Positions 4,857-29,517 of a stretch of DNA of 64,000 bases are shown piece after piece. The notes under the pieces are model-generated. The model worked only from the letters and a program-made list of their open reading frames with translations. It was not told the DNA's origin and made no database searches. The stretch comes from a bacterium (GTDB lineage: Bacteria > Patescibacteriota > CPR2 > UBA1875 > JAJYID01): NCBI GenBank assembly GCA_021796415.1, contig JAJYJC010000002.1, forward strand, positions 7,983 to 71,982. Direction: 5' to 3'. The position numbers and the translations under genes were made by a program. Each line of letters begins with the position of its first letter. The stretch's first letter is position 1.

Positions 4857-4925
4857 AGGGAAATTATAACACAAAAATGATAGATCATCGTATAAATAAT
4901 GCTTAATTTGCGGTATAATCTAGTT

Positions 4926-5456
4926 ATGGATAAAAAAATAGACATCATTTCAATAGCTGATGATGTGGCATCTTTGTCAGTAAGATCGATTTTGGAATTC
5001 TGGGGCATTAAGGTTAATATTCATTATGTTGCCAAATCACAGGACCTGGTCGATATTTTTAAGAAAGACAGTTTATCTCAAAATCTTCTTTTAATGTGTC
5101 ATGGAGTGGAAGAAGGAATTCATCTGCCTGAACTCGATCCCGCAGTAGTCAAAACTCAACCTTATGATAAGATATTAACTTCTGATAATCTTGGTGAATT
5201 TCTAAAACTAAACGGTCAAATAGCGGTAAGTACCGGGTGTAAAACCGGCACCAAAGCCTTTGCTGATACTTTTCTGAGTAAAGGAGCGAAAGAGTATATA
5301 GCGCCTGGCAGTTATCCCGAGGGAACAGCTAGTTTGTTCTTCACAGTTAATTTCTACTACTTTCTGCTAGTAAAGAAATTGCCGATCAAAGAAGCATATA
5401 CCAAGTCAAAGCTTATTGATAATGAGACAGAGATGTTTGAACTTTTTAGGAGATAA
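4926..5456 (+). CDS. hypothetical protein (~176 aa)
   Basis: ORF. TATAAT lies 7 nt upstream of the ATG, so the mRNA may be leaderless. Contains MCHG and STGCKTG (a possible His/Cys pair), but no confident family assignment. Confidence 0.4.
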   Translation: MDKKIDIISIADDVASLSVRSILEFWGIKVNIHYVAKSQDLVDIFKKDSLSQNLLLMCHGVEEGIHLPELDPAVVKTQPYDKILTSDNLGEFLKLNGQIAVSTGCKTGTKAFADTFLSKGAKEYIAPGSYPEGTASLFFTVNFYYFLLVKKLPIKEAYTKSKLIDNETEMFELFRR

Positions 5457-5671
5457 AAATAGCAGCAATAGGCACAAGCTCAAGGGTATTGTTTCAGTAT
5501 TCTAGAAAAAGCTTATTTCATTAATTTCCCAAACCAGTTTTAATCTGTGGCTTCATTGAAATCAAGCTCCGAATTTGTTATACTTATGTTCACTATAGAG
5601 TAGCGCAACTTGTACAATGCTGTACCAAAAGGGTATGGCTAAAATATTTTCCGACACAAGGAGGTGACAAC

Positions 5672-7669
5672 ATGAGTCCTGTGGCTACTGAGGAAAAGGA
5701 TTTAATAGCTGCTTTACACGGCGAAAAGCACCAAACGGCAAGAAATGAACTGGTTGAGAAATATCAACCGTTAGTTCGTTATATTGCCAATAAACATGCT
5801 GTAAATGCTGAATACCTTGATGAGCTTATTCAAATCGGATCCATAGGGCTCATAAAGGCAATTGATCGATTCGATCCGTCAAAAGGTGTAAAAATCTCTA
5901 CCTATGCTACCTACAGAATTAAAGGTGAGATCAAGGATTACTTTCGTAATTCTGAACATCGGCTCTTGAGACCTTCCAGACAACTACATGAACTAGCTGT
6001 CAAGCTAGAAAATGCAAGGCAGACTCTCACGAGCACTCACCACAAACCTACGATCACTGAACTGGCTGAGTTTGTCGGTGTCTCTACGAAAAAGGCAGAA
6101 ACTGCTCTTAGCTTGCAAGTAAGTGCGCTTTCTCTTGATGATATAGGTCAAGATGAAAGTAGTGGTCAGACACTAACGGATATTCTCGGCAAAGAAGATG
6201 GAGCATTCTCGCAGCTAGAGTACTCCATGACACTTGACTTTCTGAACTGCTCTGCGCTGAGCCAACGGGAGTTAAGGGTCTTGCATCTGAGGTTCTACGA
6301 AGACCAGTCCCCGACAGAAATAGCAAAGTTGTTAGGCTGCTCTCAGTCTAACATCACCCTGATTATTAAGAAGGCCTTCATCAAACTTCTTGGCAGCACA
6401 AATAGGTCACTTAACTCTGTTTTGCCAGCTTTTAGCTTGGCGAGCTCCGATTTGAGTTTGACTGAAAGTGAAAAAGCTCTAGCACAAGAGGCAGTAAACG
6501 CCTTGGATTATCTAGGCAACGAATCCAAGACTGATGTATTAGTGCAAGAGCTTCATGCCAGAAGAATATCACTGGAAGCCCTGTTATTTGCCCTGAGAGC
6601 TAAATATGTCAAGTTCATAAGCAATGGGGGTAATGGGACTTGGCGAGTTTTACAACCAACACTAACGCCCTCGAGCTTTCATAAGATGTTTGCGGATGAT
6701 CTGGCTTTTATGGACAGGTTACTGCTGACTCTCTTAAAGCATGGTAACGGAGGGATGGAAAGGAGAATTCTCAGAGAAACCCTTAGAAACCAGCCTGGAT
6801 CTCTACGGCTACCCGAGTATGTTGTATTTGCACAATTGCTCGGAGATACTGCTAGGCGTGGTTTTGTCGAAGTGCAGGGAAGTGCAAACTCTGATCTTGT
6901 AATTCCGCTAATCACTTTAAGTGATATCTTCGAGAAGTACAGGAAAAGAGCACTCAATCAGGAAAGGCAAGCACAGCAAAAACGGTTACTAAAACCAAGC
7001 ATCAATGATCCGCGGTTTGAACAGTTACTTGCTCAGCCACTTTCCAGTATAGCAAGGTTCATGACGGTGTTACTGCAGTTCGGCTCGAATGGAACAACTC
7101 GTCGGAACCTTCGCAAGATTCTCTCTCAGAAAAGCAACGGATCGAGCTTCGATATGAGAGATTTCACACGAACAGTGTATAAGGCTCAAGATAAGGATAA
7201 CTGTTTCGAGAAATCTCTGATTGAAGTTATACCGGCAAAGAATCAAGCAGAGGAGGTATTTCGGCCCCTAATCAGATTGGATGACCTTATTGAGAAGCTG
7301 CCTAAAACTAAGGCAAACCACAACCAGCACAAAGCAACCTGCGATAATAACCCTCTTTTCGATGAGCTGGCTCAAATGCCACTCAGCCGGCCTGAAAAGG
7401 TGTTGGTGGTCTTATGGCAATTCGGACCTGAGGGGACTGATCGCAAGACCTTGAGGGAGACAATAAAAAACGAGGTCTCTAATCTACAAGTTAGCAGCCA
7501 CCATTTCTCCTATGCTCTTTATATGGCTGTCCACAATAACAATCGGTGGGGACAACTTGTTGAGATAAGAGACGCCTTAACGCCAGATGAACAAGTCATC
7601 TATCCCCTCGTAACCCTCGAGAATTTGTGTGTAAAATATCAACTCCCAAAAGGAGGTGTCGGCGAATAA
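5672..7669 (+). CDS. sigma-70 family sigma factor (SigB/F-like regions 2, 3 and 4) with a ~410-aa C-terminal extension
   Basis: Region 2 (YLDELIQIGSIGLIKAIDRFDPSKG...TYATYRIKGEI). Region 4 HTH (LSQRELRVLHLRFYEDQSPTEIAKLLGCSQSNIT). SD aaggaggtg upstream. The C-terminal part has about four copies of a ~55-aa repeat (LLQFGSNGTTRRNLRKIL / VLWQFGPEGTDRKTLRETI / LLKHGNGGMERRILRETL). Confidence 0.75.
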   Translation: MSPVATEEKDLIAALHGEKHQTARNELVEKYQPLVRYIANKHAVNAEYLDELIQIGSIGLIKAIDRFDPSKGVKISTYATYRIKGEIKDYFRNSEHRLLRPSRQLHELAVKLENARQTLTSTHHKPTITELAEFVGVSTKKAETALSLQVSALSLDDIGQDESSGQTLTDILGKEDGAFSQLEYSMTLDFLNCSALSQRELRVLHLRFYEDQSPTEIAKLLGCSQSNITLIIKKAFIKLLGSTNRSLNSVLPAFSLASSDLSLTESEKALAQEAVNALDYLGNESKTDVLVQELHARRISLEALLFALRAKYVKFISNGGNGTWRVLQPTLTPSSFHKMFADDLAFMDRLLLTLLKHGNGGMERRILRETLRNQPGSLRLPEYVVFAQLLGDTARRGFVEVQGSANSDLVIPLITLSDIFEKYRKRALNQERQAQQKRLLKPSINDPRFEQLLAQPLSSIARFMTVLLQFGSNGTTRRNLRKILSQKSNGSSFDMRDFTRTVYKAQDKDNCFEKSLIEVIPAKNQAEEVFRPLIRLDDLIEKLPKTKANHNQHKATCDNNPLFDELAQMPLSRPEKVLVVLWQFGPEGTDRKTLRETIKNEVSNLQVSSHHFSYALYMAVHNNNRWGQLVEIRDALTPDEQVIYPLVTLENLCVKYQLPKGGVGE

Positions 7670-9450: not shown

Positions 9451-9479
9451 TTGACATGTGTATATTAGTGAGGTATTAT
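9451..9479 (+). promoter_or_regulatory. sigma-70-like promoter (TTGACA, 17-nt spacer, TATTAT)
   Basis: Near-consensus -35 and -10 hexamers with optimal spacing, read directly from the sequence. Confidence 0.5.
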
Positions 9480-9614: not shown

Positions 9615-10262
9615 TTAGCTAAATAGTTCCTTACCATCGCCAATTATATTATTTTTAAGGATCTTGAAATATATTTTCCCATGCTTCTTGTCCTCTAGAT
9701 AATGTGCTATACAACCCGTTATCCAGTCAGCTATTTGAATATTTGCACTGGTAGTAGAATCAACCATCTCTATTTGAATAAGAGTATTTTTCGACATCTT
9801 AGGTAAGAGCTGAGCCTGTAACAATGAATTGAACTGACTTCTTTTGATGCCTTTTAAATGTCTCTGGTCGCAAAATGCTCTAAACTCCTTGTCCGCTATT
9901 GGCAAATACATTTCCAGTGTATCTCCTATAATCTGCGTATAGAGTTCCCCGGCCTTGATTTTGCCTTTATGAATAAACTCTTCGGGAATATTTTTCCTTT
10001 TAAGATAAGAATACCTAATTCTTACATCCAAGTCAGCGATGTATTGGACGGTTTTGATCCTCAGTTCATCTTGAATATTTACGTCAGAAAACTTAACCTC
10101 AGGTTGATTTCTCATCTTGCGAGGAAACTTTTCTTTGTGCCATGACCTAAACCTTTTCTCCGTGCGCCTTGGGTCACCAACGGTAAACGAACCAACTACA
10201 AAATATTCACCATCTTTTGATTTGTTAAATTGTCCGCTCTCATCAATATAAATATATGGCAC
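9615..10262 (-). CDS. DUF3800-like protein
   Basis: N-terminus MPYIYIDESGQF matches the DUF3800 hallmark (IYIDESG). Confidence 0.5.
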   Translation of the reverse strand: MPYIYIDESGQFNKSKDGEYFVVGSFTVGDPRRTEKRFRSWHKEKFPRKMRNQPEVKFSDVNIQDELRIKTVQYIADLDVRIRYSYLKRKNIPEEFIHKGKIKAGELYTQIIGDTLEMYLPIADKEFRAFCDQRHLKGIKRSQFNSLLQAQLLPKMSKNTLIQIEMVDSTTSANIQIADWITGCIAHYLEDKKHGKIYFKILKNNIIGDGKELFS

Positions 10263-10387: not shown

Positions 10388-10480
10388 TCAAAATCAGCTA
10401 TAATAAGTACTCAAATTAGCCGGATGAGTTTGGGGGTAACCCTAAGCTTTCAAAGCTTGCAACCTTGAAAAGGAGAAGAG
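10388..10480 (+). promoter_or_regulatory. conserved promoter/leader module (copy 1): caaaatcagcTATAATaagtactcaaattagc ... tttgaaaaggaga
   Basis: The 33-nt block is nearly identical to the one at 14381-14414. TATAAT is at 10399-10404. Confidence 0.5.
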
Positions 10481-10481
10481 A

Positions 10482-14380: not shown

Positions 14381-14483
14381 CAAAATCAGCTATAATAAGG
14401 TACTCAAATTAGCTAGATAAGGTTGGAGGATAGGACTCTAACCTTTTTGAAAAGCTCGAACTTTGAAAAGGAGATGTATTCTC
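14381..14483 (+). promoter_or_regulatory. conserved promoter/leader module (copy 2)
   Basis: caaaatcagcTATAATaaggtactcaaattagc plus tttgaaaaggaga, matching copy 1 at 10388. Confidence 0.5.
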
Positions 14484-15034: not shown

Positions 15035-15396
15035 TGTCATATATTCCGCTTGTAATTGGAGAAAGGCGGGGACAAGAAAAATGTCTTGTCCCCGCCACAG
15101 GGGACTTTTTGAAAAAAAGAGTCCTTTTTTCTTTGGGTAAAAAGTGCTCAGCAAAGATCGTTTCTGCGATACATCTCCGATTATTGTGTATACGATAGAT
15201 ATTCCTTGCGATTTTGTTTAGTTCGGCTTGATGAAGAGGCTGCCAAGAAATAATCTTGAGATTCGGTCCCATCTGCTCAAAGCTGGCAGGTAGTCCCGCA
15301 TTACCGGTTGCAGTAAACGTTAAAATATAGTATAATCTTTTTAGTGTATAGAGGGTCCACAAGAGTGTGGACTTATTTATTGAACATTGAAAAGAG

Positions 15397-16923
15397 GTGA
15401 GACTAATGGGTAGAAGGGGTAGGCAAAGGATATGGACTGAGGAAGTTGTCATCAACACGCTTAAATCTCTGAAAAAGAATGGCGAACCGGTTAACACGCA
15501 GTACCTGATTAACAACCACCGATCATTGCGTTCGGCTATGGTGAAGAGATTCGGTTCCTGGGAAAAAGCTGTTGTTGCAGCCGGGCTAGATCCCAAAAAG
15601 GAACGAGCTAAAAACCAACCTACTAAGAGCAATAATGCCCGGAAAGAAGCAGTGGTCAAGACTACGCCTCAGTCTAAACGGAAATCTTCCAGGAAATGGC
15701 GTGGTACTTACAAGCAATGGAGTAAGGATAAGATCATTGCCCAGTTGCATGAAATCAAGCTCAACGGAGAAGCCATCAGTTATAATTCATTGAGACAAAA
15801 TGGCTACAGTGGCCTTGCGGCTGCAGCTTGCCGTTACTTCGGTTCATGGGAAAAAGCAATCATAGCGTCTGGTTTTGATCCCGACCAAGAAAGCTTGGTT
15901 AAGAGATCTGGAAAGCCTTCTGAAAGTTGGGATAAAGACAAGGTCATTTCTAGATTCAAAGAGATCAAAGCCAAAGGCGGCAGTATCAACTATAAGGCCA
16001 TACAAGAAAATCATTATGGTCTTTGGAGTGCGGCTTGTTACTACTTTGGTTCCTGGGAAAAGGCGGTCACTGTTGCTGGCTTTAACCCCGATGAGGAGAA
16101 GCTGTTTCAGAAATTTGCGCTGAAGAGGAAGATAGGAAGACATCCCTTGGCCCCTTCAGAGGAATATGAGCGATCCTTAGTAAAGCAAGGCAAGCTCAAT
16201 GTTCTCTTTCCAGCCATGAGACAGCTTAGAGAACAATTAGGACGAGCTGCGACAGACGTCGAAATTGCACATTTCCTCAAAAAGTCGGTGGAGGAGATTG
16301 CTAATTGGCAATCAAGCAGAGAGAGGCTAATCCTCTCTTACCTGCCACTAGCAGAGAGCTATGCAAGGCATTTTTATGAGCATCAAGTCAAGGTAAGGCA
16401 TCTGACTTCTGACAATAAGTACAACAGAGAAGAATTCAGGGCTTTTGGCAGTCTATGGCTAGTTGAAGTTATGGAGGAATTCGATTGGGGCGACGAATTC
16501 GGTGGTTTTTCTGGCTATTTCAAGGTAGCATTTGAAAGGAGGATATATTACCGATATCTGATCAAGGAGATCGAAAATCCTATCATATCATTTGACTATG
16601 AAATAGAGTCTGGGCGAGATGGTAGCAGAATGATCCTCGCGGATATAATTGCTGACCCTCGGTCTCTACCAGAACCAGAATACGACCCAAAACAGTTATC
16701 CTTCATAAAAAGCGCCCTTAATCAACTGCCGGGAAGTCTCAAGCATGCACTTATGTGGGATCTTGGCATGGAATTTCATGACAAGACGCCCGCGGAGTTT
16801 GCAACTTTTCTGGGGGTTGCCATTGGAGACATAGACGAGCTCATCAAAACTGCTATTAGGAAGTTCTCAAGTATAGTTTTTCAACCCGGACTTCCTGACG
16901 GCGATCAGGCTTTAGCCTCATGA
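15397..16923 (+). CDS. sigma-70-like protein with three N-terminal ~55-aa repeats
   Basis: C-terminal HTH LKHALMWDLGMEFHDKTPAEFATFLGVAIGDIDELIKTAIRKF (region 4-like). Central segment LILSYLPLAESYARHF...FSGYFKVAFERRIYYRYL (region 2-like). The N-terminal repeats share W..EKVI...KEIK..G..I.Y..L..N...L..A...YFGSWEKA...AGF[DN]P. Confidence 0.5.
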   Translation: MRLMGRRGRQRIWTEEVVINTLKSLKKNGEPVNTQYLINNHRSLRSAMVKRFGSWEKAVVAAGLDPKKERAKNQPTKSNNARKEAVVKTTPQSKRKSSRKWRGTYKQWSKDKIIAQLHEIKLNGEAISYNSLRQNGYSGLAAAACRYFGSWEKAIIASGFDPDQESLVKRSGKPSESWDKDKVISRFKEIKAKGGSINYKAIQENHYGLWSAACYYFGSWEKAVTVAGFNPDEEKLFQKFALKRKIGRHPLAPSEEYERSLVKQGKLNVLFPAMRQLREQLGRAATDVEIAHFLKKSVEEIANWQSSRERLILSYLPLAESYARHFYEHQVKVRHLTSDNKYNREEFRAFGSLWLVEVMEEFDWGDEFGGFSGYFKVAFERRIYYRYLIKEIENPIISFDYEIESGRDGSRMILADIIADPRSLPEPEYDPKQLSFIKSALNQLPGSLKHALMWDLGMEFHDKTPAEFATFLGVAIGDIDELIKTAIRKFSSIVFQPGLPDGDQALAS

Positions 16924-17017: not shown

Positions 17018-17050
17018 GGGCTGACACTCAGCGACTCATTGGCCCCCAAC
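17018..17050 (+). terminator. intrinsic terminator-like hairpin
   Basis: 11-bp perfect stem ggcccccaacc...ggttgggggcc, then atttaaatt. Confidence 0.4.
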
Positions 17051-17224
17051 CTTAAAAAGGTTGGGGGCCATTTAAATTCCGTAAACCATTGGGGTTCAGA
17101 ACGGTACCATATGAAACAAGACAAAAAAACAAGACAAAAAAAGTTCTTGACTTGATAAACCTCTTATGTTAAAGTCTTGCCATTAAAATCAAATAGGAGG
17201 GGCAGGAGGGAAGAAAGGATCCCT

Positions 17225-17551
17225 ATGCGACGTTTTCATTCTCTCCTGACAGTTCTATCATTAACGCTTCTATCGGCTACACCGGCCTTTGCGGCCCCTG
17301 CCGATCTCTCTAAGGTACAAAGTTTTGCCCAGAGCATTATACAAGTGCTCGTAACACTGGCCGGCCTGCTTGCAGCCGGTTTTTTTGTTATGGGCGGTAT
17401 CGGCTACATCACAAGCTCAGGTAACCCAGAACATCTCGACAAGTCTAAAAGAACTATTATCTTTTCAGCTCTAGGACTGGCGGTTTCGATCGGCGCCTTT
17501 GTTATCTCAAATATAATAGCCGAACTCGCGACAACGGCATTCGGCAGATAG
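17225..17551 (+). CDS. T4SS pilin-like protein (signal peptide plus two TM helices; VirB2/TrbC-like topology)
   Basis: Signal peptide ending AFAAP. Motif GFFVMGGIGYITSSGNPEHLDKSKRTI is repeated in the N-terminus of the next gene. RBS aggaggg. Confidence 0.5.
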   Translation: MRRFHSLLTVLSLTLLSATPAFAAPADLSKVQSFAQSIIQVLVTLAGLLAAGFFVMGGIGYITSSGNPEHLDKSKRTIIFSALGLAVSIGAFVISNIIAELATTAFGR

Positions 17552-17560
17552 GAAAAAACG

Positions 17561-18835
17561 ATGAAGAAATTAATCCCTGCCATATTTACCGCGGCGATTA
17601 CTTCACTCATTCCAACCATAACTTTTGCCGCTTCCAACGCTGATGTTGAGGGTTTTGCCCGCGACACTTTGACAACTCTTACTGTCTTAGCATCCATTGC
17701 CGTTGTCTTTTTCCTGATCGGCGGAGGGTATCTATATATAACCTCCACGGGGAAACCAGAGGCGCTTGATAAGGCCAAAAGAACTATCAGAAAAGCTCTG
17801 ATCGGGCTCGTAATCGTTATCGGTGCCAGTGTCATTTCCTCGATCCTAAACGGAGCGCTCACTCCGTCAAGTTCCGGCGGTATCGGGACGGCTCTAAACT
17901 TAGCTCCCATTCAGCCGGCTGCCCAAAACGGATCGCTGGCCCAAATACTTCTTGACGCTATTTCCGGTTTCCTGCAAAACATTGTTCAGTCGGCGACAAA
18001 GCCGATTATAGACGGCATTACCTGGTTTCTTACAAACACTCCGGCCTTATCAACCAACTCAGTTGTTTTTAAGTTTTGGCTCTTAATGGTCGGCATTACC
18101 GATTCACTTTTCGCCGTTGTTATCGCGCTCCTCGGCCTCCATGTCATGAGCGCCTCGACCTTCGGCTTTGAAGAGCTCAGCGTCAAACAGCTCATGCCGA
18201 GAATCGGTCTTGCTTTCCTTGTCGCCAACACCTCAATATTTTTGATTGACTGGATCATCCTCCTTTGCCAAACCTTAATCCATGCAGTTCTTAACGCCAC
18301 CGGAGGTCTGGGCCAAGCTTGGATCCTAAACGCCTTTGACCCGGCCGCCCTTGTCAGCGGTTCAACGGCTCTCATTACTCTGATATTTATGATTATCTTT
18401 GTGGTCCTAGCCATAGTTCTGCTTCTTTTCTATATCAGCCGTTTAATGATCCTTGCCTTCGGCGCCGTTATCTCACCGCTGGTCTGCCTGCTCTGGCTTC
18501 TGCCTAAGGCGTCCAACTTCGCCGAAAACGCAGTCAGAATGTATTTTGTGACGCTCTTTTCCATTTTTATCCATGTCGTTATCATTCAACTGGCCTCGGC
18601 TTTTCTTACCATACCCGGCCAGCAGGGGACAAATCCGATCATCTCCGTTCTAATCGGTATCGCTCTTCTTTCTATACTACTTAAAAGCACGGCAACCACG
18701 ACTCAACTCGCCCTATCCGCACAGACAGCGGGAACGTTCAAGAAATACGGCGGCCAGCTACTAAATGTAATGAGCTCGTCTGCCAGCGGGACATCATCGT
18801 CCAGAGCGGCGGCTCAGAAAGCGAGTACAAAATGA
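17561..18835 (+). CDS. VirB6/TrbL-like polytopic membrane protein with an N-terminal pilin-like domain
   Basis: N-terminal ~100 aa paralogous to the 17225 gene (VFFLIGGGYLYITSTGKPEALDKAKRTI). At least six further TM helices follow. Confidence 0.5.
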   Translation: MKKLIPAIFTAAITSLIPTITFAASNADVEGFARDTLTTLTVLASIAVVFFLIGGGYLYITSTGKPEALDKAKRTIRKALIGLVIVIGASVISSILNGALTPSSSGGIGTALNLAPIQPAAQNGSLAQILLDAISGFLQNIVQSATKPIIDGITWFLTNTPALSTNSVVFKFWLLMVGITDSLFAVVIALLGLHVMSASTFGFEELSVKQLMPRIGLAFLVANTSIFLIDWIILLCQTLIHAVLNATGGLGQAWILNAFDPAALVSGSTALITLIFMIIFVVLAIVLLLFYISRLMILAFGAVISPLVCLLWLLPKASNFAENAVRMYFVTLFSIFIHVVIIQLASAFLTIPGQQGTNPIISVLIGIALLSILLKSTATTTQLALSAQTAGTFKKYGGQLLNVMSSSASGTSSSRAAAQKASTK

Positions 18836-19341
18836 AAACAAGCGTAGTGCCAGCTCAAATCACAACGATCGAGGACAAAATTGCCGGCAATATGACCTTC
18901 CCTCAGATCCTGCTCCTCGTCATTTCCCTGGTTCTCGGCACCATAATCTATGTTATCGTTCCCCCAAGCTCCCGCTTGAGCGTTATAAAAATCATTGCTA
19001 TCGTCGTTCAGTTTCTCATCCTCGGCCTCCTGGCTCTCCGCGTCAAAGGGCAGACTATGGCCGACCGGCTCATGATACTGCTTCGGTACGCCCTAAGACC
19101 CCGCCTTTATCTTTTTACCAAGAACGATCTCGCAACAAGAGACGTCGCCGTCCTCGAGAAAGCAAAAAAGACGGCAAAGGTAAATAATGATTTGACCAAG
19201 AAAAAGCAGGCAGTCCCGGAAAAACCCAAACTCGACCAGTCCATGCTGGACCGGTTCTTAACAGATCCGTCATTAAATATTCGTTTAGAGCTTACCAAGA
19301 AAGGAGGAATTGATGTTTCCCTTAAAACAGATAAAAGCTAA
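18832..19341 (+). CDS. VirB3/PrgI-like small membrane protein
   Basis: Single hydrophobic hairpin near the N-terminus. Position immediately upstream of VirB4. Confidence 0.4.
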   Translation: MKTSVVPAQITTIEDKIAGNMTFPQILLLVISLVLGTIIYVIVPPSSRLSVIKIIAIVVQFLILGLLALRVKGQTMADRLMILLRYALRPRLYLFTKNDLATRDVAVLEKAKKTAKVNNDLTKKKQAVPEKPKLDQSMLDRFLTDPSLNIRLELTKKGGIDVSLKTDKS

Positions 19342-19930
19342 AGGTTCGGCGAGATCCCAAATCGGCATCAGGGAAGTCAGGGATGATATTCTCATCTTGC
19401 CCGGCAACCGCTACCGCGCGGTTCTTGCCGCCTCTTCGGTCAACTTTGAGCTCCAAAGCGAAGCCGAACAAGACGCCCTCATCGACAACTTTCAGGCATT
19501 TCTAAACTCTCTGACCACTCCGATCCAAATTCTGATCCGCGTAAGAGCCCTGGATATCGAGCAGTATTTGGAGAATCTGACTTCGGAAAGGGCCAAGGAG
19601 GAGCAAAAGATTTATAGAGACCAGCTAAAACATTATTCAAACTTTATCCGCAAGCTCGTTTCGGGCAATAAGATACTCTCGCGCCGCTTCTACATTGTCA
19701 TCCCTTATGAGAACAAGGCGGCAAGCGACTTCAACATTGCCAAAGAACAGCTCACGCTGGAACAGGAAATTATCATTAAAGGACTGGAAAAACTGGGAAT
19801 GAAAGTAAGCCCGCTTAAAAGCCTGGAAATCCTTGACCTCTTCTACAGTTTCTATAACCCGGCGCTTGCCAAATCCCAACCGCTGTCTGAAGTAATAATA
19901 GGAAAAACAAATGAACTTAACATCATTTAA
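19310..19930 (+). CDS. VirB4-family ATPase, N-terminal domain (split ORF)
   Basis: Resembles the N-terminal region of Gram-positive VirB4/TraE-type ATPases (REVRDDILILPGNRYRAVLAASSVNFELQSEAEQ). Overlaps the next ORF by 20 nt in another frame. Confidence 0.5.
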   Translation: MMFPLKQIKAKGSARSQIGIREVRDDILILPGNRYRAVLAASSVNFELQSEAEQDALIDNFQAFLNSLTTPIQILIRVRALDIEQYLENLTSERAKEEQKIYRDQLKHYSNFIRKLVSGNKILSRRFYIVIPYENKAASDFNIAKEQLTLEQEIIIKGLEKLGMKVSPLKSLEILDLFYSFYNPALAKSQPLSEVIIGKTNELNII

Positions 19931-21695
19931 GCCAAAAAGGCTTCATCGCCCGAGCAGTAAAGAACGCGCGCGCCAGGAACAGGCTTTTGCCTTCCATGTC
20001 GGAGAACAGGATCAGCTCGACCTCATCACTTACGCAGGGCTGGAAGAGAGCGCAAACCACATTGAAATAGACGGCCAGTTTATGAAGACAATCTTTGTTT
20101 CCGGTTATCCCTACACTTCTTCAAGCGGATGGCTGAACCACCTTATTAACTTCAACCATAACGTCGATATCTCATATCACATTGAGCCGGTTGACGCCAC
20201 TATGGCTCTGCCTAAACTAAACCGCAAAATCACCGAGCTTACATCTACCAAAAGAGCGATGGAGCGAGACGGACGGATTATCGGGGCCGAGCTGCTCGAC
20301 CCTCTGGAATCGGCCATGGAGCTAAGAGACAGGATTCAAAGAGGACAGGAAAATCTCTTTCAAGTCTCTTTGTATATAACACTTTTTGCCGATTCTCTCG
20401 TAGAACTCGATAAGGTAACAAAGCTCTTGGAGACTGTTCTCGCCGCAAGGCTTTTCTATACTAAGCACGCGTCTTACAGGCAAATAGAGGGCCTCCAGTC
20501 GGTGCTGCCAAGGGGCGACAACCAGTTGGCCCAAAAAAGAAACTTAGACAGCTCGTCGGCCGCCATGACATTTCCCTTTATATCATCCGAGTATGTCCAT
20601 GATTCGGGGGTTCTATACGGCATAAACAGATCGAATAATTCTCTCGTGATTGTCGACCGCTTTAAACTCCCGAACGCGAACAGCATCCTTTTTGCCCAGT
20701 CAGGAGCCGGTAAGAGCTACACTGCCAAAGTAGAGATCTTAAGGCACCTGATGCAAGGGACAAAAGTAATTGTGATAGATCCCGAACGGGAATACCGCCA
20801 GCTGGCCGACTCGGTCAAGGGAACGTATATAAAGCTCTCTGTCCATTCAAAAGAAAAGATTAATCCCTTTGATCTCTCGGTTAATACATATAATGAAGCC
20901 GACGGCTTTGCAGACCACGTCCAGTCGCTGACCGAGATAATTTCTCTGATGGCCGAGGGGCTTTCAGCGGAAGAAAAGTCAGTCGTAGACCAGGCAATCA
21001 TCAAAACTTACAGGGAAGCCGGCTTTTCACGGAGAAAAACTAAAAAGAAGAACGACAAACCTTATCCAAAACTGCGTGACTTTGCCCGAATGCTTACAAC
21101 TCTAAAGCAAGACGGACTAAGGAGAAGGCTGGAAAAATATACCGACGGGTCACTATCTGAGGTGTTTAACTCCCAGACAAATATAGAGCTCGAGAATAGG
21201 CTGGTAGTCTTTGACACCAAAGACCTGCCGGAATCTCTCCGCCAGATCATGCACTTAATTATCGCCCAGTTCGTCCAAAATCAGGTCAAAAACAAAACCT
21301 GCAAGAGAACCCTTGTCATTGATGAGGCCTGGCTGATGCTTGAACATGAAGAGAGCGCCAGATTTATTGCCGGACTTGTCAGGCGGGCGAGAAAGTATTA
21401 TCTCGGAGTCAGTATTATTTCTCAGCAGGCCAATGACTTTCTCTCAAATAACTACGGACGGGCCATTGCTTCGCAAAGCGCCCTTAGAATCCTAATGAGG
21501 CAAGACACGACTACTATTAAAAATGTCGGTATCGAGTTTGGACTGAGCGAATATGAGCAGAAGTTTCTTTTGACCTGCGAGCGCGGCGAGGCTCTCATTA
21601 TCGCCGATCAGCACCATGTGGCGGTTAAGGTTACGGCTTCGGAAGAAGAGCATCCTTTAATTACTACCGATCCGGCCGAACTAAGAAAGGCTTGA
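19911..21695 (+). CDS. VirB4-family conjugative/T4SS ATPase, ATPase domain
   Basis: Walker A FAQSGAGKSYT. Walker B RTLVIDEAWLML. ISQQAND motif. Confidence 0.75.
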   Translation: MNLTSFKPKRLHRPSSKERARQEQAFAFHVGEQDQLDLITYAGLEESANHIEIDGQFMKTIFVSGYPYTSSSGWLNHLINFNHNVDISYHIEPVDATMALPKLNRKITELTSTKRAMERDGRIIGAELLDPLESAMELRDRIQRGQENLFQVSLYITLFADSLVELDKVTKLLETVLAARLFYTKHASYRQIEGLQSVLPRGDNQLAQKRNLDSSSAAMTFPFISSEYVHDSGVLYGINRSNNSLVIVDRFKLPNANSILFAQSGAGKSYTAKVEILRHLMQGTKVIVIDPEREYRQLADSVKGTYIKLSVHSKEKINPFDLSVNTYNEADGFADHVQSLTEIISLMAEGLSAEEKSVVDQAIIKTYREAGFSRRKTKKKNDKPYPKLRDFARMLTTLKQDGLRRRLEKYTDGSLSEVFNSQTNIELENRLVVFDTKDLPESLRQIMHLIIAQFVQNQVKNKTCKRTLVIDEAWLMLEHEESARFIAGLVRRARKYYLGVSIISQQANDFLSNNYGRAIASQSALRILMRQDTTTIKNVGIEFGLSEYEQKFLLTCERGEALIIADQHHVAVKVTASEEEHPLITTDPAELRKA

Positions 21696-21699
21696 AAAA

Positions 21700-22323
21700 A
21701 TGAACCCGGCCGCTATTAAGATAATCGCAAGCGCCTACTCAATGAAAAAGGAAATTAGGCTCGCGTTCATAACTCTCGTGGCTGTTTGCTTGATTCCGGT
21801 GGTTGCCGTTTTAATGATTACCCAAGTCGGGATTGACGCGGTTTCCGGAGCTCTTGCCAGCCAGAACCCTCAGACTCTTCAAGTTGATATTCACGATCCG
21901 AAGACCGGAGCGGTCATTGATCATATTGCAGGGCCGGCTATCTGGCCGGTTTCGGGCCCAGTGAGTCTGGAGTTTGGCCAGCCTTCTCCGTTTCAGCGGT
22001 TTCATACGGGAATTGATATAGCCGACCCGAACCACAGCGTCGGCACGCCGGTTGAAGCTTTTATGAAAGGCAAGGTTATTTATGCCGACAGCGATCCTTG
22101 GGGTTTCGGCCGTCATGTCATTATTGATCACGGCCACTTTGTCACCTCGCTATACGGCCACTTGAATACTATAAACGTTATTAAGGGGCAAGAAGTTGAC
22201 ATGGGAACAGTCATCGGTACCAGGGGCAATACCGGCTGGTCAACCGGTCCGCATCTCCATTTTCAGATCGAAGTTATGCATATCCCCGTGAACCCAAGGA
22301 TATTTTTGAGTGGGAATCCATAA
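21700..22323 (+). CDS. M23-family metallopeptidase (LytM-like) with an N-terminal TM anchor
   Basis: HTGIDIA...GHFVTSLYGHL...GPHLHFQIEV (HxxxD and HxH motifs of M23). Confidence 0.75.
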   Translation: MNPAAIKIIASAYSMKKEIRLAFITLVAVCLIPVVAVLMITQVGIDAVSGALASQNPQTLQVDIHDPKTGAVIDHIAGPAIWPVSGPVSLEFGQPSPFQRFHTGIDIADPNHSVGTPVEAFMKGKVIYADSDPWGFGRHVIIDHGHFVTSLYGHLNTINVIKGQEVDMGTVIGTRGNTGWSTGPHLHFQIEVMHIPVNPRIFLSGNP

Positions 22324-22384
22324 GTGTTAGAGCGATTTTTACGAAGTTTCTTAGGATTGTAATTTATACCCTTTTTAGATAAGC

Positions 22385-24496
22385 TTGAATCAAATGGAAA
22401 CAAGAGAAAGTCAACAATTTAACAATCAAACAGCTTTTCCAGAAAATCAGCACACTTACAACGATCTGAATTCTGGTGATATTGAAAACCAAGAAATTCA
22501 TTTTTCTGAGGAGCAAAAGACGGCAATCGAACAAAAAAGAAGAGTTCTTTCTTCTCTTGCCTACTTTATTGGTAAGGATTTTCAGATCCCTGTAGAGCTG
22601 AATGAACCGGGTATGGGTTGGCACTGGGATTTTAAGAAAAATGAAATCAAAGTCGATCCTAAAGATCTTATTGAAAAACCCATGGACTACTTAAGATTCG
22701 TTATTTCTCACGAGGGAGGACATCGCCGTATCTCTCGGACAGAATCGATTCCTCTCGAGACTTGGAAGCAGCCCGGTTTTTCTTTCATGATGAATGCGAT
22801 TGAAGATCCCAGAGATAACAACTTTGTGGCTGAAAACTACCCAAGATTTAGAAGTCAAATGGATGTGGCGTATAAAGACAGTATGGAACTTAAGCAAGAA
22901 TCTGCGCAGAAAGCAAGTGATGAGCTCGGTTATCAGCCTCGTTTTATGCAAGCTGGCTTTGAGTATATTAAGCAGTGGCACAAAGAACAAAAAGGTGAAA
23001 AATTTTCTGTAAGCGAAGATTTACCAAAAGAAGTTCGAGAGGTTGTTGAAAAGACTTTGAATGCGGCAAGCGACTCATGGTGGCGCTATCCGTCAAGAGA
23101 AGAAGCTGACTCAAGTGAAGAGACAATCAAAAAATATGCTGAGGCCTCTTATCGAATAAACCTAGAAAGAATTTGGCCTGAGTTTCAAAAACTTGTTGAG
23201 AAGGATATGGAAGATCAAAATATGCAAGAACTCCTAGGCCAGATGCAAACAAGTGAGGAAGAGGGTGGCTCGGGGTTACCTCAAGAACTCGAAGATAATC
23301 TATCGCCAGAAGAACAAAAGGTATTAGAAGAAGCAATCGAACAAGCCATGCAGAGTGGTGCTGAGGTACAGGAACAAACAGAAGCTGGCACACGAGGCAA
23401 ACCAATTGATTTAAGCTCTTTACCCGACGAGTTGAAACAAAAAATCCAAGATTATATTAATTCTTTGCCGGAAGATCAAAAGCGAGAACTTGCAGAAAAA
23501 GCAAGGGCGGCATTGTCTGATTTTGAAAAAGAACTAGATGAGGAATTGGGAGGGAAACTCTCAGATAGCCCGGAGAAAAAAGCCGAACGAGGCGAAGAAT
23601 CTGAGATACCGTTAGAAAGTAAGGCAACTACGACCGAACCAATTACCCCGGAAGAGTCCGATGAAGTGAGAAAATACAGAGAATTTATAGAACAAGAGCT
23701 ATCAAAAGACGCTAATGCCTATGAAAGACATCGCCGAGAGGTTTTACCCATTATTGACCAGCTTGAACAAGATTTAAGAGAAATTTTTGTTATGAGAAGA
23801 TCTGGCCAATGGGAAAGCGGATTTAGGTCAGGAAAAAGAATTGATATCAAAAGAAGAATACAAGAAAAAGCCAAGGGCGTATCTGCAATGGAGAGTAAGG
23901 CGTGGGAAAAGAGAGAATTGCCCCAAGAAAAGGATTATGCTGTCAGTCTGCTTGCTGATTTATCAGGATCAATGCGAGGAGAAAAGATAAAGGAAACTTT
24001 TAAGGCAGTCATTGTGTTATCTGAAGTGCTAAACAGATTATCAATCCAAACAGAGATTCTGGGCTTTAACAACAGGATTTATGATTATCAAAACTTTGGT
24101 GAGGACATATCAAACCAAAAACGAGAAAACATGGGCGGTATGCTTCAAGAAGTTGCGGGTAGCGGACACAGGTGGAACGATGACGGTTGGGCTGTTGAGC
24201 AGGCATCGGAGCGACTGGCAAAACAAAGAGCGAAAGAAAAGTTTCTTATTGTCCTTTCAGATGGCTTGCCGGAGGAATCTTCTGCCCATCCAAGAGCAAA
24301 GTATGAGCTTGGATCTGTGGTGCAAAAAATTATTGGCTCAACGGATCAAAAGTTAATTGGATTGGGCATCGGTCCAGATACAAATCATGTTGAAAATTAC
24401 TACCCAAATAGTATTTCCAATGTAAATGTAAAGGAAATGGCTGGAAAGCTGGCCGACCTCATCCGTGAAGCTATTGCTAATTTTGATAAATTTTAA
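22385..24496 (+). CDS. VWA-domain protein with an N-terminal HExxH metallopeptidase-like motif
   Basis: ISHEGGHRRI (HExxH). Acidic coiled-coil linker. C-terminal VWA domain with MIDAS DLSGSM and LIVLSDGLPEE. The architecture resembles DUF2201-type partners of MoxR-like ATPases. Confidence 0.65.
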   Translation: MNQMETRESQQFNNQTAFPENQHTYNDLNSGDIENQEIHFSEEQKTAIEQKRRVLSSLAYFIGKDFQIPVELNEPGMGWHWDFKKNEIKVDPKDLIEKPMDYLRFVISHEGGHRRISRTESIPLETWKQPGFSFMMNAIEDPRDNNFVAENYPRFRSQMDVAYKDSMELKQESAQKASDELGYQPRFMQAGFEYIKQWHKEQKGEKFSVSEDLPKEVREVVEKTLNAASDSWWRYPSREEADSSEETIKKYAEASYRINLERIWPEFQKLVEKDMEDQNMQELLGQMQTSEEEGGSGLPQELEDNLSPEEQKVLEEAIEQAMQSGAEVQEQTEAGTRGKPIDLSSLPDELKQKIQDYINSLPEDQKRELAEKARAALSDFEKELDEELGGKLSDSPEKKAERGEESEIPLESKATTTEPITPEESDEVRKYREFIEQELSKDANAYERHRREVLPIIDQLEQDLREIFVMRRSGQWESGFRSGKRIDIKRRIQEKAKGVSAMESKAWEKRELPQEKDYAVSLLADLSGSMRGEKIKETFKAVIVLSEVLNRLSIQTEILGFNNRIYDYQNFGEDISNQKRENMGGMLQEVAGSGHRWNDDGWAVEQASERLAKQRAKEKFLIVLSDGLPEESSAHPRAKYELGSVVQKIIGSTDQKLIGLGIGPDTNHVENYYPNSISNVNVKEMAGKLADLIREAIANFDKF

Positions 24497-24508
24497 TAAA
24501 ATTACGTT

Positions 24509-24934
24509 ATGATAAAGGAAAAATTTTCAACCTTTTTAGAATATTCTTTGTCTCAAAAAGAAGTTTCTCTAATCGTGGCCAAACATGAAAATGAGCTTTC
24601 TCATTTTGAGAGGTGGCTTGAAGACAAGGGGTTTAGAAGAGCTGCTCATGCTTTTGACTTGCTTGACAACCTTGAAGATCATAAGAAACTTTACGTGATT
24701 TTAAAAACAGAGAATGGCAAAGATTCCTATGATTTTGCGGCTCAGTTTCCAACGGGTCAGATTGAGCTTTTTGATAAAAAAACCATGAAAAAGATGCTAA
24801 AAAATATTGATTATAAAAACCGATCAATAGTCTTTTTAACCACAAAGCATCATCTCTTCGACCTTGAAAAGGAGGATTTTAATTTTCTCTCATCAGTTGG
24901 TATGGCTTTCAGAAATGGAGATGCCCATGTCTAG
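24509..24934 (+). CDS. hypothetical protein (141 aa)
   Basis: ORF between the VWA and ATPase genes. Confidence 0.4.
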   Translation: MIKEKFSTFLEYSLSQKEVSLIVAKHENELSHFERWLEDKGFRRAAHAFDLLDNLEDHKKLYVILKTENGKDSYDFAAQFPTGQIELFDKKTMKKMLKNIDYKNRSIVFLTTKHHLFDLEKEDFNFLSSVGMAFRNGDAHV

Positions 24935-27002
24935 TCCGGAATTTAGTTTACTTACCGATCCTGAGCAGGAAAAGCCTGTAGAGGATAAGCATCAGGAAGA
25001 AAAAAGCGAGACTCTCGCTCCGATTGCGGAGGATGAAACCTCGGTTTCATATCTAGGGGTAAGATTAGAAAAAGGGCATGTGCCAAGCCCCTTTATACCA
25101 GAGAGAGATAAATATACTGACTATATAAATGATCGATTTACCCTGGAGCTACAGCAGAAGATTGCCATCGGCTTTCAGTCGGGCGACCCTACTCTTATCG
25201 AAGGCGGGACTAGTATCGGTAAGACTACAGCAGCCAGAAAGATGTGTGCGGAACTTGGCTGGGAAGTTCATTATGCTAACTTGAATAAGGCCACGGATGT
25301 TGAAGATTTAATGGGCCGATATATTCCAAATCCTCATCGAACCAAACCTGATGATCCCGAGTTCGTTTTTGCCGATGGAAGAGTTACGGCCGGCCTAAGA
25401 CAGGAAGAAGGAAAAATAAAAGTTATCATCCTTGATGAATATAATGCGGCAGCGCCAAACATTGTAATCCGCCTGCATGAGGTACTAGATGCCCTTGAGC
25501 GTGATGGAGATGTTGTGCTATCGGAAGATGCCTCAGAAACCGTTCCTGTATCGAAAGATAAGACGAAATTAATTGCCCTCACTAATCCGCCCGGAAAAGG
25601 TTACTTTGGTCGTGAACCGCTAGATCCGGCTCAGTTAAGAAGATGGGTCTACCAGAAAGAAGCGAGCAATTTACCCGAAAATACTTTCTCTTTTTCAACC
25701 AAAAGTCTCTTTGGCTTGGTCTCGGAAAATGGCGATGTTATTCCCGAAGAAGTTTACCTAGAATCTCATGAAGACACTCTTTCTTCTCAGCAAATTGCTG
25801 AAATTCCCGGTATTAGCGAAGTGGAGGCAAAGTATGAAGAGTTTCATAGGGCAGCGAAAGAGCTTTTGAAAAATAGAACCATTGCTGCCGATCAACCGCA
25901 ACAGTTTACTTTTGATGATAGAATGGAGCCAAGACGGGTACGAGACTTTGTAATGAGGTTTTACAGCGGAGATATCAATGAAACTTTTCAGCAAGCTCTA
26001 AGATATTATTATTCGAATAAACTAGAGTCAGACGAAGACAGGCAGAAGATTGAAGAGCTAATCTCTCATGTAGGATACACTCCTCAGCCCGACTCAAGAA
26101 GGTTGGGTCTTGAGGATGAATCACGCCCAGAGGGAGTTGGCCTAAGAGATCAAGTCGAGATCGGCATAGAAGATATTTTGCAGGACCCGGCCATTCCGGA
26201 TTCAGTCAAAGAGGTTCTAAGAGTTGAGGGGGTAAAGTTTTCTGAGGCAAAGGAAATAATGAACCAAGATTTTATCGGTCCAGACGAGATTAAAAAAGCT
26301 TTTGGTTTAGAGGTGGATAGAGTACCAGATATTCCCTTTTCAAGAAGCGAACTGGAAAGAGCTAAGGAACTCGATCAAATGCTTATATATAGAACGGGTA
26401 CTGCTGCCCGAGGCGAGCCGATGACTATGGAAAAGATAAATGGCCTTCTTTCCGGCAAGACTAAAGATGGCGGAAAGATATTTTTTGATACTGATTGGTA
26501 TAAAGATGAGGCATTTTTTAAGTCTGAAGCAATCAAGGAAGGATGGTCTCTTGTGTCTAAGGAAGTTATATCTGAGTCGACCAGCAAGAACTATCTGGAG
26601 CAAACCGAGACAATGGTAGATTATCTTAGGAGTAAAGTTTTTGCAGGAGGCGATGTGCCAGAGGAATATCAGGAAGCAATTGGCCAATTTGAAAGCCAAA
26701 AAGATGAAATTTCAAAATTGATAGAAAGTAACTGGAAGAAAGCGGCTGAAAAACTAGAGGGTCTTTCCATTACTCACATGACCAGACAAAGACCGGTTGA
26801 AGCTATCTATGACTTAGTTGCTGTTTATGAGAATACTGATGACCATCTACTTTCTAACAGATATACTTGGACTTCCGCGCGTGACTCTGGCGGCAAGCTG
26901 GTCCGTGTGGGCTACTTCGATGCCAGGGGCGTGCGTGTCCACGGGGGCAGTCCCGACGATCGGTATGACAATCTGGGCGTTTCTTTCTCCCGCAGTCAGT
27001 GA
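24930..27002 (+). CDS. AAA_5/MoxR-like ATPase fused to a C-terminal DGR variable (target) domain
   Basis: Walker A GGTSIGKTTAARKM. Walker B VIILDEYN. Sensor 1 LIALTNPPG. Arginine motif LDPAQLRRW. The last 113 bp before the stop is VR1. The start is uncertain (24864-24930). Confidence 0.7.
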   Translation, partial: SSPEFSLLTDPEQEKPVEDKHQEEKSETLAPIAEDETSVSYLGVRLEKGHVPSPFIPERDKYTDYINDRFTLELQQKIAIGFQSGDPTLIEGGTSIGKTTAARKMCAELGWEVHYANLNKATDVEDLMGRYIPNPHRTKPDDPEFVFADGRVTAGLRQEEGKIKVIILDEYNAAAPNIVIRLHEVLDALERDGDVVLSEDASETVPVSKDKTKLIALTNPPGKGYFGREPLDPAQLRRWVYQKEASNLPENTFSFSTKSLFGLVSENGDVIPEEVYLESHEDTLSSQQIAEIPGISEVEAKYEEFHRAAKELLKNRTIAADQPQQFTFDDRMEPRRVRDFVMRFYSGDINETFQQALRYYYSNKLESDEDRQKIEELISHVGYTPQPDSRRLGLEDESRPEGVGLRDQVEIGIEDILQDPAIPDSVKEVLRVEGVKFSEAKEIMNQDFIGPDEIKKAFGLEVDRVPDIPFSRSELERAKELDQMLIYRTGTAARGEPMTMEKINGLLSGKTKDGGKIFFDTDWYKDEAFFKSEAIKEGWSLVSKEVISESTSKNYLEQTETMVDYLRSKVFAGGDVPEEYQEAIGQFESQKDEISKLIESNWKKAAEKLEGLSITHMTRQRPVEAIYDLVAVYENTDDHLLSNRYTWTSARDSGGKLVRVGYFDARGVRVHGGSPDDRYDNLGVSFSRSQ
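26878..26990 (+). repeat. DGR variable repeat VR1 (113 bp)
   Basis: Matches the TR at 29518-29630 with 13 substitutions, all at TR adenine positions. Confidence 0.85.
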
Positions 27003-27085
27003 TACTTTGAAAATTGATTTTTGAAACTTTGATACGCCGAAGGCGTCGGACACAAAATTTTAACAGAAGGTAATAAGGATAAAAA

Positions 27086-28066
27086 ATGAGCGAAATCGGA
27101 TCACCACAACCTGAAATACCGGAGGAAGCGGTAGAAAAAGAAGCTGAGGGTATTAGAATTGCCACAGAAATATCTGAGCTTAGGGCAAGTGCCCGTAATG
27201 AAGCTGATTATGAGAATATTTTGCAAAAAACTCGAGAGCTAAAGGAGCTTTTTGGGATAGTTGTAGAAGGTAAGCTTTCTGGCGAAGTTGCGGAACAGAT
27301 GAGTATGGCCAAAGAAATCATGGAGGAGGATTTTTTCGGTCCGGATGAGATTAAAAAAGCCCTTGGCATTGAAGTGACTGAAATGCCGGACATCCCATTC
27401 AAAAAAGAGGAACTAGAAAGAGCAAAGGAGCTAGAACAGATATTGATTTTGCGGACAGACAAAGCTTCCGATGGCAGTCCTCTAACAATGGAAAAGGTTC
27501 GCGACATGATGGGTAACGAAGACAAAGATGGCGGAAAAATCTTTTGGGAGAGCGCTGACTGGTATAAAGATGAAGCTTTTTATACCAAAGAGACTGCTAA
27601 AGTTGGTTGGGCGTTGGTCTCTAAAGAGGAAATTCCTGATGCAACCAATAAAAATTATTTAGAACAAACAGAAAGTCTTGTTACTTACCTCAAAAACCAA
27701 GTTTTTGCCGGAAAACCGATGCCAAAAGAATATCAGGATGCCGTAGGCGAATTTGAATCACAGAAGTCAACAATAGAGAGTTTGGTCGAAGATGACTGGA
27801 AAGCTGCAGCAGAGAAGTTATCCAAGCTTTCCATTACCAAGCTCACCCGCCAATCACCGGTTGAGGCCATTTATGATATAGTAGTGCATTATCAGAACAC
27901 GGATGAGAGATTGCTAGAAGAAATGTATACTTGGACTTCCGCGCGTGACTCTGGCGGCAGGCTGGTCCATGTGGGCGGCTTCGGTGCCGAGGGCGTGAAT
28001 GTCAACGGGAGCAGTCCCGACTCTCGGTATGACTTTCTGGGCGTTTCTTTCTCCCGCAGTCAGTGA
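27086..28066 (+). CDS. DGR target protein paralog (326 aa)
   Basis: About 65% identical to the C-terminal 270 aa of the 24930-27002 product. VR2 sits at its 3' end. Confidence 0.7.
   Translation: MSEIGSPQPEIPEEAVEKEAEGIRIATEISELRASARNEADYENILQKTRELKELFGIVVEGKLSGEVAEQMSMAKEIMEEDFFGPDEIKKALGIEVTEMPDIPFKKEELERAKELEQILILRTDKASDGSPLTMEKVRDMMGNEDKDGGKIFWESADWYKDEAFYTKETAKVGWALVSKEEIPDATNKNYLEQTESLVTYLKNQVFAGKPMPKEYQDAVGEFESQKSTIESLVEDDWKAAAEKLSKLSITKLTRQSPVEAIYDIVVHYQNTDERLLEEMYTWTSARDSGGRLVHVGGFGAEGVNVNGSSPDSRYDFLGVSFSRSQ
27942..28054 (+). repeat. DGR variable repeat VR2 (113 bp)
   Basis: Matches the TR with 14 substitutions, all at TR adenine positions. Confidence 0.85.
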
Positions 28067-28123
28067 TACTTTGAAAATTGATATTTGAAACTTTGATACG
28101 CCGAAGGCGTCGGACACAAATTT

Positions 28124-29194: not shown

Positions 29195-29512
29195 AAAACC
29201 TACAAGTTTTATCTTGCTTTATATTCCACAAATCAGTTTTTACCAAAGAGAGATCGATATACTCTTGGGGTGAAAGCCGAAAATATTAGTTTGGAGATTC
29301 TTGAAACGTTATATTTAGCCAATTCTAAAGCTGGCAATATCCGCCTAGAACTGCTAGAAAAAGCCGATGTGAAGTTAAAAGTTCTCCAAGCAGTCATACG
29401 CCTTTGCCACGATACAAAAGCGCTTGATCAAAACAAATATCTTGCTTTGCAGTCTGCATTGCAAGAAATAGGGAAAATGCTTGGAGGTTGGATAAAAACT
29501 ACAAAAAGTTAG
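29132..29512 (+). CDS. Avd-like four-helix-bundle accessory protein
   Basis: Similar to the Avd / 23S-rRNA-intervening-sequence four-helix-bundle family (…LPKRDRYTLGVKAENISLEILETL…, C-terminal EIGKMLGGWIK). Lies between the RT and TR on the opposite strand. The start may be the internal Met at 29147. Confidence 0.55.
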   Translation: MIKQTMTTTPDNRFSDISIIHKTYKFYLALYSTNQFLPKRDRYTLGVKAENISLEILETLYLANSKAGNIRLELLEKADVKLKVLQAVIRLCHDTKALDQNKYLALQSALQEIGKMLGGWIKTTKS

Positions 29513-29517
29513 ACTTC

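Follow-up and report, generated by a model that had tools for sequence, protein, structure and literature searches.

A putative alternative sigma factor with an N-terminal array of homing-endonuclease-associated repeats from a Saccharibacteria-related patescibacterium

Extracytoplasmic function (ECF, group 4) sigma factors consist of sigma domains 2 and 4 joined by a short linker, whereas group 1-3 sigma factors carry region 3 between these two domains. Some ECF sigma factors carry an additional domain, at the C-terminus in ECF41 and ECF42 and at the N-terminus in BldN (ECF121) and SigC (ECF36). Here we analyzed a 64,000-nucleotide stretch of a bacterial contig (JAJYJC010000002.1, assembly GCA_021796415.1, positions 7,983 to 71,982 of the forward strand; hereafter, the window) and focused on one gene at 15406-16923, whose 505-residue product (P0001) joins three homing-endonuclease-associated repeats (HEAR) to a divergent sigma-70-like module. 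We consider P0001 probably to be an alternative sigma factor: its core would be ECF-like with two domains, its region-3-like helix-turn-helix is displaced, and its basic HEAR array would supply additional contacts to nucleic acid. It shares with ECF sigma factors the sigma-2/short linker/sigma-4 core without region 3 between, and with the extended ECF groups the presence of an extra domain on that core. Unlike the extensions of those groups, that of P0001 is at once N-terminal, ~300 residues long and made of HEAR repeats plus a region-3-like helix-turn-helix. Since surveys describe ECF N-terminal extensions as uncommon and generally short (PMC7826278), a repeat-bearing extension of this size is new among sigma factors, and the HEAR-sigma fusion is not described for them. 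Unless stated otherwise, the features below lie on the + strand.

The sequence FGSWEKA occurs three times in the open reading frame (at residues 52, 148 and 217) and is identical in all three copies, in agreement with an earlier note on this DNA that proposed three tandem repeats of ~55 residues with an invariant core. The repeats are clear members of the HEAR family as judged by the Pfam profile PF18780 (HNH_repeat, "HEAR"), which matches the N-terminus in three stretches (E = 6.5e-13, 49.2 bits against a cut-off of 26) and bears out the resemblance that the note had proposed. The units are, though, ~61 residues long each and not strictly tandem, because linkers of 34 and 7 residues separate them (start-to-start spacing of 96 and 69 residues), and beyond FGSWEKA the core varies, with unit 2 reading A-S-G instead of x-A-G. 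Pairwise identities of the units are 38%, 39% and 51%, and their Smith-Waterman scores are 120-179 against 21-24 ± 4 for shuffled sequences (z = 24-35); chance similarity was ruled out, given a z of at least 24. Repeat 1 (15421-15603, residues 6-66) has a net charge of +6 and was delimited with PF18780 and a hidden Markov model of the unit. It is followed by the 34-residue linker (15604-15705, residues 67-100), which is K/R-rich with a net charge of +11. Repeats 2 (15706-15891, residues 101-162) and 3 (15913-16098, residues 170-231) were delimited in the same way and by their alignment scores, and both are covered by an AlphaFold model. At the DNA level the units are 47-61% identical, and the codons of the identical FGSWEKA cores differ synonymously (TTC/TTC/TTT, TCC/TCA/TCC, AAA/AAA/AAG and GCT/GCA/GCG), so the core has been held by selection at the protein level. 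The same DNA identity and synonymous differences ruled out a recent DNA duplication as the origin of the repeats.

To place these repeats in context we retrieved 121 other HEAR proteins with 600 units, which share with P0001 a ~62-residue period and a W...FGSW..A..AG core. Approximately 100 of the 121 are bare arrays of 3-10 units, and P0001 differs from most of the family in carrying a sigma-like module, one that is found in three clusters only. A homing endonuclease was ruled out for P0001, as scans of Pfam, NCBIfam and PHROGs returned no nuclease family. The 600 units have a mean net charge of +3.5, with 84.5% of them positive, and the few domains that partner HEAR bind or process DNA (XRE helix-turn-helix, Ros/MucR, recombinase and TFIIB). 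One array matched the NUMOD-like DNA-binding module of I-HmuI weakly (29.5 bits against a cut-off of 27). HEAR is probably a nucleic-acid binder, to which the positive charge, the DNA-related partners and the NUMOD-like match all point. In the AlphaFold model of units 2-3 (60 aligned repeat pairs; predicted local distance difference test, pLDDT, 93.3), each unit is predicted to form four helices plus a short fifth. No match to HEAR was found among PDB sequences, hence no solved structure by sequence, and in a viral structure library the model matched uncharacterised phage proteins only. HEAR arrays are also present on some plasmids of the Bacillus cereus group, Brevibacillus and haloarchaea. 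We found no paper on HEAR function in the literature; the repeat family is merely listed in a repeat-modelling paper.

One HEAR protein (P0042) offers a parallel to P0001 in having its HEAR head N-terminal to a basal transcription initiation factor. It is 777 residues long (gene at 4892-7225 of the 7.4-kb contig L029, beside an RNase III gene), and its six HEAR repeats precede a TFIIB zinc ribbon (45.7 bits), a TFIIB core and a C-terminal sigma-region-4-like helix-turn-helix; the NCBIfam model for transcription initiation factor IIB scores 66.7 bits. Unlike P0001, it carries an archaeal/eukaryotic-type factor with no sequence relation to the P0001 C-terminal module. This single example suggests that HEAR heads on initiation factors could be a broader theme.

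The C-terminal 270 residues of P0001 were confirmed as a highly divergent sigma-70-like module by profile comparisons and model-based fold matches. In Pfam, the sole match to the C-terminal half of the protein was Sigma70_r3 (29.6 bits against a cut-off of 25.3, residues 267-309). A profile built from the three known members of the module family (P0001, P0002 and P0121) was compared to PDB sequences, and all significant natural matches were sigma factors: FliA (1rp3, 2.8e-7), SigF (5e-5), Staphylococcus aureus SigB (6e-5), RpoS (9e-5) and SigA (3.5e-4). One PDB match was stronger than FliA, that to 8vd6 ('CAP REPEAT'); this entry contains a repeated helix-turn-helix-like unit, which accounts for five short stretches of match. 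The NCBIfam matches of the three members are weak, and every listed one is a sigma model, including TIGR02937 for P0121 (36.3 bits, spanning model positions 3-162 of 165) and SigK for P0002 (31.4 bits). The alignment by hhalign to the canonical sigma factor encoded at 5672-7669 of the window is collinear over columns 68-255 with regions 2.1 to 4.2, with region 3 skipped (E = 9.8e-5). An AlphaFold model of the module, built from the 3-sequence alignment (mean pLDDT 70.5), was searched against the PDB with Foldseek, and nearly all of the top 50 matches were sigma factors with a probability of ~1.0. A motif that is invariant in the family, FDW...G.F..Y, lies in the sigma domain 2-like part and corresponds to regions 2.2-2.3. 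The assignment to the sigma-70 family thus relies on profile and fold evidence, because the curated thresholds are not reached. The earlier note had read sigma region 2 and 4 likeness from the letters, which the profile, hhalign and Foldseek results support, although Pfam calls neither region and TIGR02937 stays under its cut-off. Domain searches assigned neither the C-terminal half to a non-sigma helix-turn-helix family nor the repeats to an unrelated domain.

In sequence and predicted structure, the domain order of P0001 is three HEAR repeats, a region-3-like helix-turn-helix, sigma domain 2, a linker and sigma domain 4. The earlier note had named regions 2 and 4; the additional helix-turn-helix ahead of region 2 was not mentioned there. 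This putative region 3.0/3.1-like unit (16153-16323) is indicated by the Sigma70_r3 match, a profile search and pLDDT values of 88-98. Sigma70_r3 also matches the other two members at the same place before region 2 (P0002, 21.5 bits; P0121, 22.7 bits). A profile of the 72 residues preceding domain 2 matches region 3 of FliA, Thermus and Bacillus SigA, RpoS, SigB, SigF and the window's own sigma factor; each E value is marginal (0.003 to 0.8), but every match falls in region 3. In the AlphaFold model the last helix of the unit continues unbroken into the region 2.1 helix (module residues 59-94, pLDDT 92-98). The sigma domain 2-like part (regions 2.1-2.4, 16306-16563) is predicted from hhalign, alignments to FliA region 2.1 and SigF region 2.2, and fold matches. 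It is followed by a putative ~40-residue linker without region 3 (16564-16686), where pLDDT is below 50 and hhalign skips region 3. The domain 4-like part (16687-16881), with four predicted helices including a helix-turn-helix, aligns to FliA 161-237, SigF 163-238 and RpoS 231-322 and is supported by the model and hhalign. Group 3 sigma factors (FliA/sigma-28, SigF/SigB) are the best sequence-level relatives of P0001 with solved structures and share a region-3-type helix-turn-helix with it. In contrast to them, P0001 scores far under every family cut-off and has its region-3-like unit before domain 2, so it lacks the hallmark of groups 1-3, region 3 between domains 2 and 4. We know of no described sigma factor with a region-3-like unit N-terminal to domain 2, although no literature search was aimed at this order.

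The fusion is rare. An exhaustive HMMER pass with the C-terminal module against 1.84 billion representative proteins recovered only three clusters, which accords with the earlier note's view that it is unusual. Besides P0001 they are P0002 (699 residues, 44% identical) and P0121 (349 residues, 32% identical), and the module is preceded by six HEAR units in P0002, three in P0001 and one in P0121. At the position of the basic linker of P0001, P0002 has a shorter linker. There is no one-to-one orthology of repeat units between the family members, with identities of 29-60% in all directions. No relatives of the module were found in GTDB species-representative genomes, close host relatives included, or in viral contigs and annotated phages, and no match in a plasmid search covered it. 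A search of metagenome contigs recovered the P0121 locus only; word-index searches with the trimmed module or its profile, a poorly behaved method, returned nothing or P0121 only. Metagenome-assembled genomes (MAGs) from Crystal Geyser, named "bacterium CG...", carry the P0121/P0122 homologue, and its gene there follows ftsA, ftsZ, nrdR, nrdD, nrdG and yggT. All of the >20 contigs with it, from many samples and assemblers (L009-L012 included), stop ~380 bp past the gene, which hints that a repeat or a stretch variable between strains lies at that place. No paralogue of P0001 was found in the window by phmmer, and the sigma factor at 5672-7669 is related to its module at the profile level only. 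That gene (+) encodes a complete set of regions 2, 3 and 4 in residues 27-239 (Pfam), matches the PHROG 'RNA polymerase sigma factor' at 1.4e-47 and has a C-terminal extension of ~425 residues without a family match.

If P0001 is an alternative sigma factor, as we consider probable, sigma domains 2 and 4, with the flexible linker between them, would engage core RNA polymerase and recognise the -10 and -35 elements; the region-3-like helix-turn-helix precedes domain 2, to which a single long helix connects it. The HEAR array and the K/R-rich linker would contact nucleic acid beside the promoter and add specificity or affinity; less likely, the array would keep the factor inactive or dock a partner. 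The gene itself would be transcribed alone from a housekeeping-type promoter, and transcription would stop at its own terminator. For P0001 we infer that it binds RNA polymerase and recognises promoters, and that its repeats bind DNA.

Several observations weigh against this reading. The Pfam models for Sigma70_r2 (PF04542) and r4 (PF04545/PF08281) have no match in P0001 even at E ≤ 10, and the region 2 and region 4 models likewise have none in P0002 and P0121. All members score under the TIGR02937 cut-off of 42.9 bits (18.5-36.3 bits, P0001 being at 18.5), which also sets the family apart from ECF sigma factors. The hhalign probability for the window's canonical sigma factor is just 58%, and the global TM-scores of the module model to sigma structures are low (0.2-0.4), as expected for a flexible multi-domain protein. 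Conservation is lacking at the region 2.2 residues with which sigma-70 touches the beta-prime clamp helices, judging by an alignment to what we take to be the Escherichia coli motif. As to the repeats, units 2 and 3 have a net charge of 0, and the model of the HEAR pair has no significant PDB neighbour by Foldseek (best E = 0.84). A search for a distinct target promoter or a shared intergenic motif yielded no such promoter, and all visible nearby promoters, including that of the secretion-like operon downstream of the gene, look housekeeping-type. Adjacency to that operon is known for the P0001 locus alone, as the P0002 contig is 3.4 kb and the P0121/P0122 contigs end ~380 bp downstream.

P0001 could also be a true sigma factor whose HEAR head regulates it or docks proteins, acting as a platform for another protein or as an on-board inhibitor or pro-sequence comparable to sigma-70 region 1.1, the BldN pro-region or the SigC extension of Mycobacterium tuberculosis. 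The known N-terminal sigma extensions work by inhibition or proteolytic control (PMC7826278). On-board control would make sense here, as no anti-sigma gene is recognisable beside the gene, and the neutral units 2 and 3 would also fit a head that does not touch DNA. Several HEAR proteins match the model of Clp_N, a helical repeat that binds protein (22-26.6 bits against a cut-off of 20.7), but these matches are short, with no stretch passing alone. As the array as a whole and its linker carry a strong positive charge (+6 and +11), whereas region 1.1 is an acidic DNA mimic, and the partner domains of HEAR across the family are DNA-binding, we regard such a head as possible but rather unlikely. 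A further alternative is that P0001 is a sigma-derived repressor or activator that binds DNA and no longer RNA polymerase, for instance to control the adjoining secretion operon. The missed thresholds of the curated sigma models, the poorly conserved core-binding residues of region 2.2, the non-canonical domain order and the position of the gene directly upstream of an operon with a housekeeping-type promoter would all be in line with this. Yet the complete domain 2 scaffold, including FDW...G.F..Y, is conserved in all three members, although it would be superfluous in a plain DNA binder; moreover, the fold matches cover whole sigma factors and not isolated helix-turn-helix domains. We consider loss of polymerase binding improbable.

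A mobile-element origin, either as a degenerate homing-endonuclease-type gene without its nuclease or as a factor of an element without a host role, appears very improbable to us. HEAR arrays do occur on plasmids and in phage proteins that are uncharacterised, GTDB species representatives (close host relatives among them) lack the gene, and all contigs with the P0122 homologue break at the same distance downstream. Against this, three diverged lineages have kept the open reading frame intact, the repeats show selection, and the P0121/P0122 copy sits among the core genes ftsA, ftsZ and nrdDG. P0001 has no nuclease domain, no relatives in the viral contig collection or annotated phages, and no integrase, relaxase or tRNA nearby. 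Returning to the alternative sigma factor that we favour, a HEAR-array sigma would be a new way to lend RNA polymerase extra promoter specificity and would for the first time place the widespread repeat in a functional setting other than nucleases. The unusual location of the region-3-like unit would bear on sigma architecture and evolution. More speculatively, and in our view unlikely as a generalisation, HEAR arrays might be portable nucleic-acid-reading heads on basal initiation factors across lineages (sigma and TFIIB/TFB), with variable repeat numbers (1, 3 or 6 in the P0001 family) extending promoter recognition and with a permuted 3-2-4 sigma in which a region-3-type DNA reader would flank domain 2 on the side where it is not normally found.

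An intact open reading frame spans 15397-16923, as listed in the earlier note, though translation likely begins at ATG 15406 rather than at GTG 15397. The latter falls within a putative ribosome-binding site (GAGGTG, 15394-15399), and ATG 15406 comes 6 nucleotides after it (site and start codon together at 15394-15408); this is also the start in the public gene call, which gives the 505-residue product. Identical P0001 was found on 5 contigs, and the three places shown represent three different samples, namely the NCBI assembly GCA_027334665.1 and two independent sequencing runs; the gene is therefore no assembly artefact. A candidate sigma-70-type promoter lies upstream, with TTGCAG (15308-15313) and TATAAT (15331-15336) separated by a 17-nucleotide spacer, identified as a consensus match. 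It is 3' of the terminator-like hairpins (15088-15127) at which an upstream operon of small orphan open reading frames closes. The 5' untranslated region holds a stem-loop of 9 pairs followed by ATTTATT (15353-15374), flagged as terminator-like, and an analogous leader hairpin can be read at the P0121 locus. Past the stop codon is an intrinsic-terminator-like hairpin with 14 pairs, 9 of them G-C (17040-17070). With its own promoter, the upstream hairpins before and the terminator-like hairpin after it, the P0001 gene is predicted to be monocistronic, in a small transcription unit of its own as in ECF sigma factors. Unlike these, it has no recognisable anti-sigma neighbour or autoregulatory promoter, as its own promoter is housekeeping-type and the neighbouring genes encode orphan small proteins without an anti-sigma signature. 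When the upstream regions of the three family genes were aligned, nothing convincing was seen beyond GAACATTGAAAA, common to two of them.

The window is chromosomal, as it includes genes for IF-2, ribosomal protein S1, PriA and a DHH phosphoesterase. Its IF-2 is 97-78% identical to those of groundwater MAGs, 62% to that of a Candidatus Saccharibacteria MAG and ~50% to those of other Patescibacteria; by these identities the host is a member of the Patescibacteria related to Saccharibacteria. Patescibacteria have tiny genomes with few regulators, and their dependence on host bacteria is believed to rest on a type IV secretion-like apparatus. A type IV secretion-like operon (17147-27002) lies directly downstream of the P0001 gene and has a predicted housekeeping-type promoter (TTGACT, 17 nucleotides, TAAAGT; 17147-17175). 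Its genes encode a TrbC/VirB2 pilin and VirB6-like, PrgI-like, TraC-like, VirB4 and M23 peptidase proteins, and it ends with VWA and AAA_5 (MoxR-like) genes. This operon is a possible target of P0001, going by its position. No relaxase or coupling protein was seen near it, which matches the Patescibacteria type IV systems in a 2025 preprint, where no sigma factor is mentioned (10.1101/2025.01.22.634366).

The end of the operon overlaps a diversity-generating retroelement (24927-29630). Its reverse transcriptase gene (RVT_1) is at 28124-29194 on the - strand, and the template repeat (29518-29630) is on the same strand, upstream of that gene. One variable repeat (26878-26990, +) is the 3' end of the AAA_5 gene that closes the secretion-associated cluster (691 residues), and the other (27942-28054, +) is the 3' end of a 326-residue open reading frame (27086-28066). 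At every one of the ~20 mismatch columns between the repeats, the template base is A.

Upstream of the P0001 gene, a promoter-plus-leader of ~90 nucleotides is present in two copies (10390-10481 and 14382-14483), with the shared sequence AAAATCAGCTATAATAAG..TACTCAAATTAGC...TTGAAAAGGAGA. The copies precede two operons of small orphan open reading frames, the first products of which are unrelated; the -35 region is not conserved, and the leader stem differs between the copies. No tie of this pair to the P0001 gene was found. A DUF3800 gene (9615-10262, - strand) is also present in the window; such a gene adjoins a HEAR-containing regulator on a Brevibacillus plasmid as well, probably by coincidence. 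Converging on it is a DUF3800-V RNA (Rfam RF02964, 9485-9580, +), which scores 71.5 bits against a gathering score of 37.4 and is preceded by a consensus promoter at 9451-9479.

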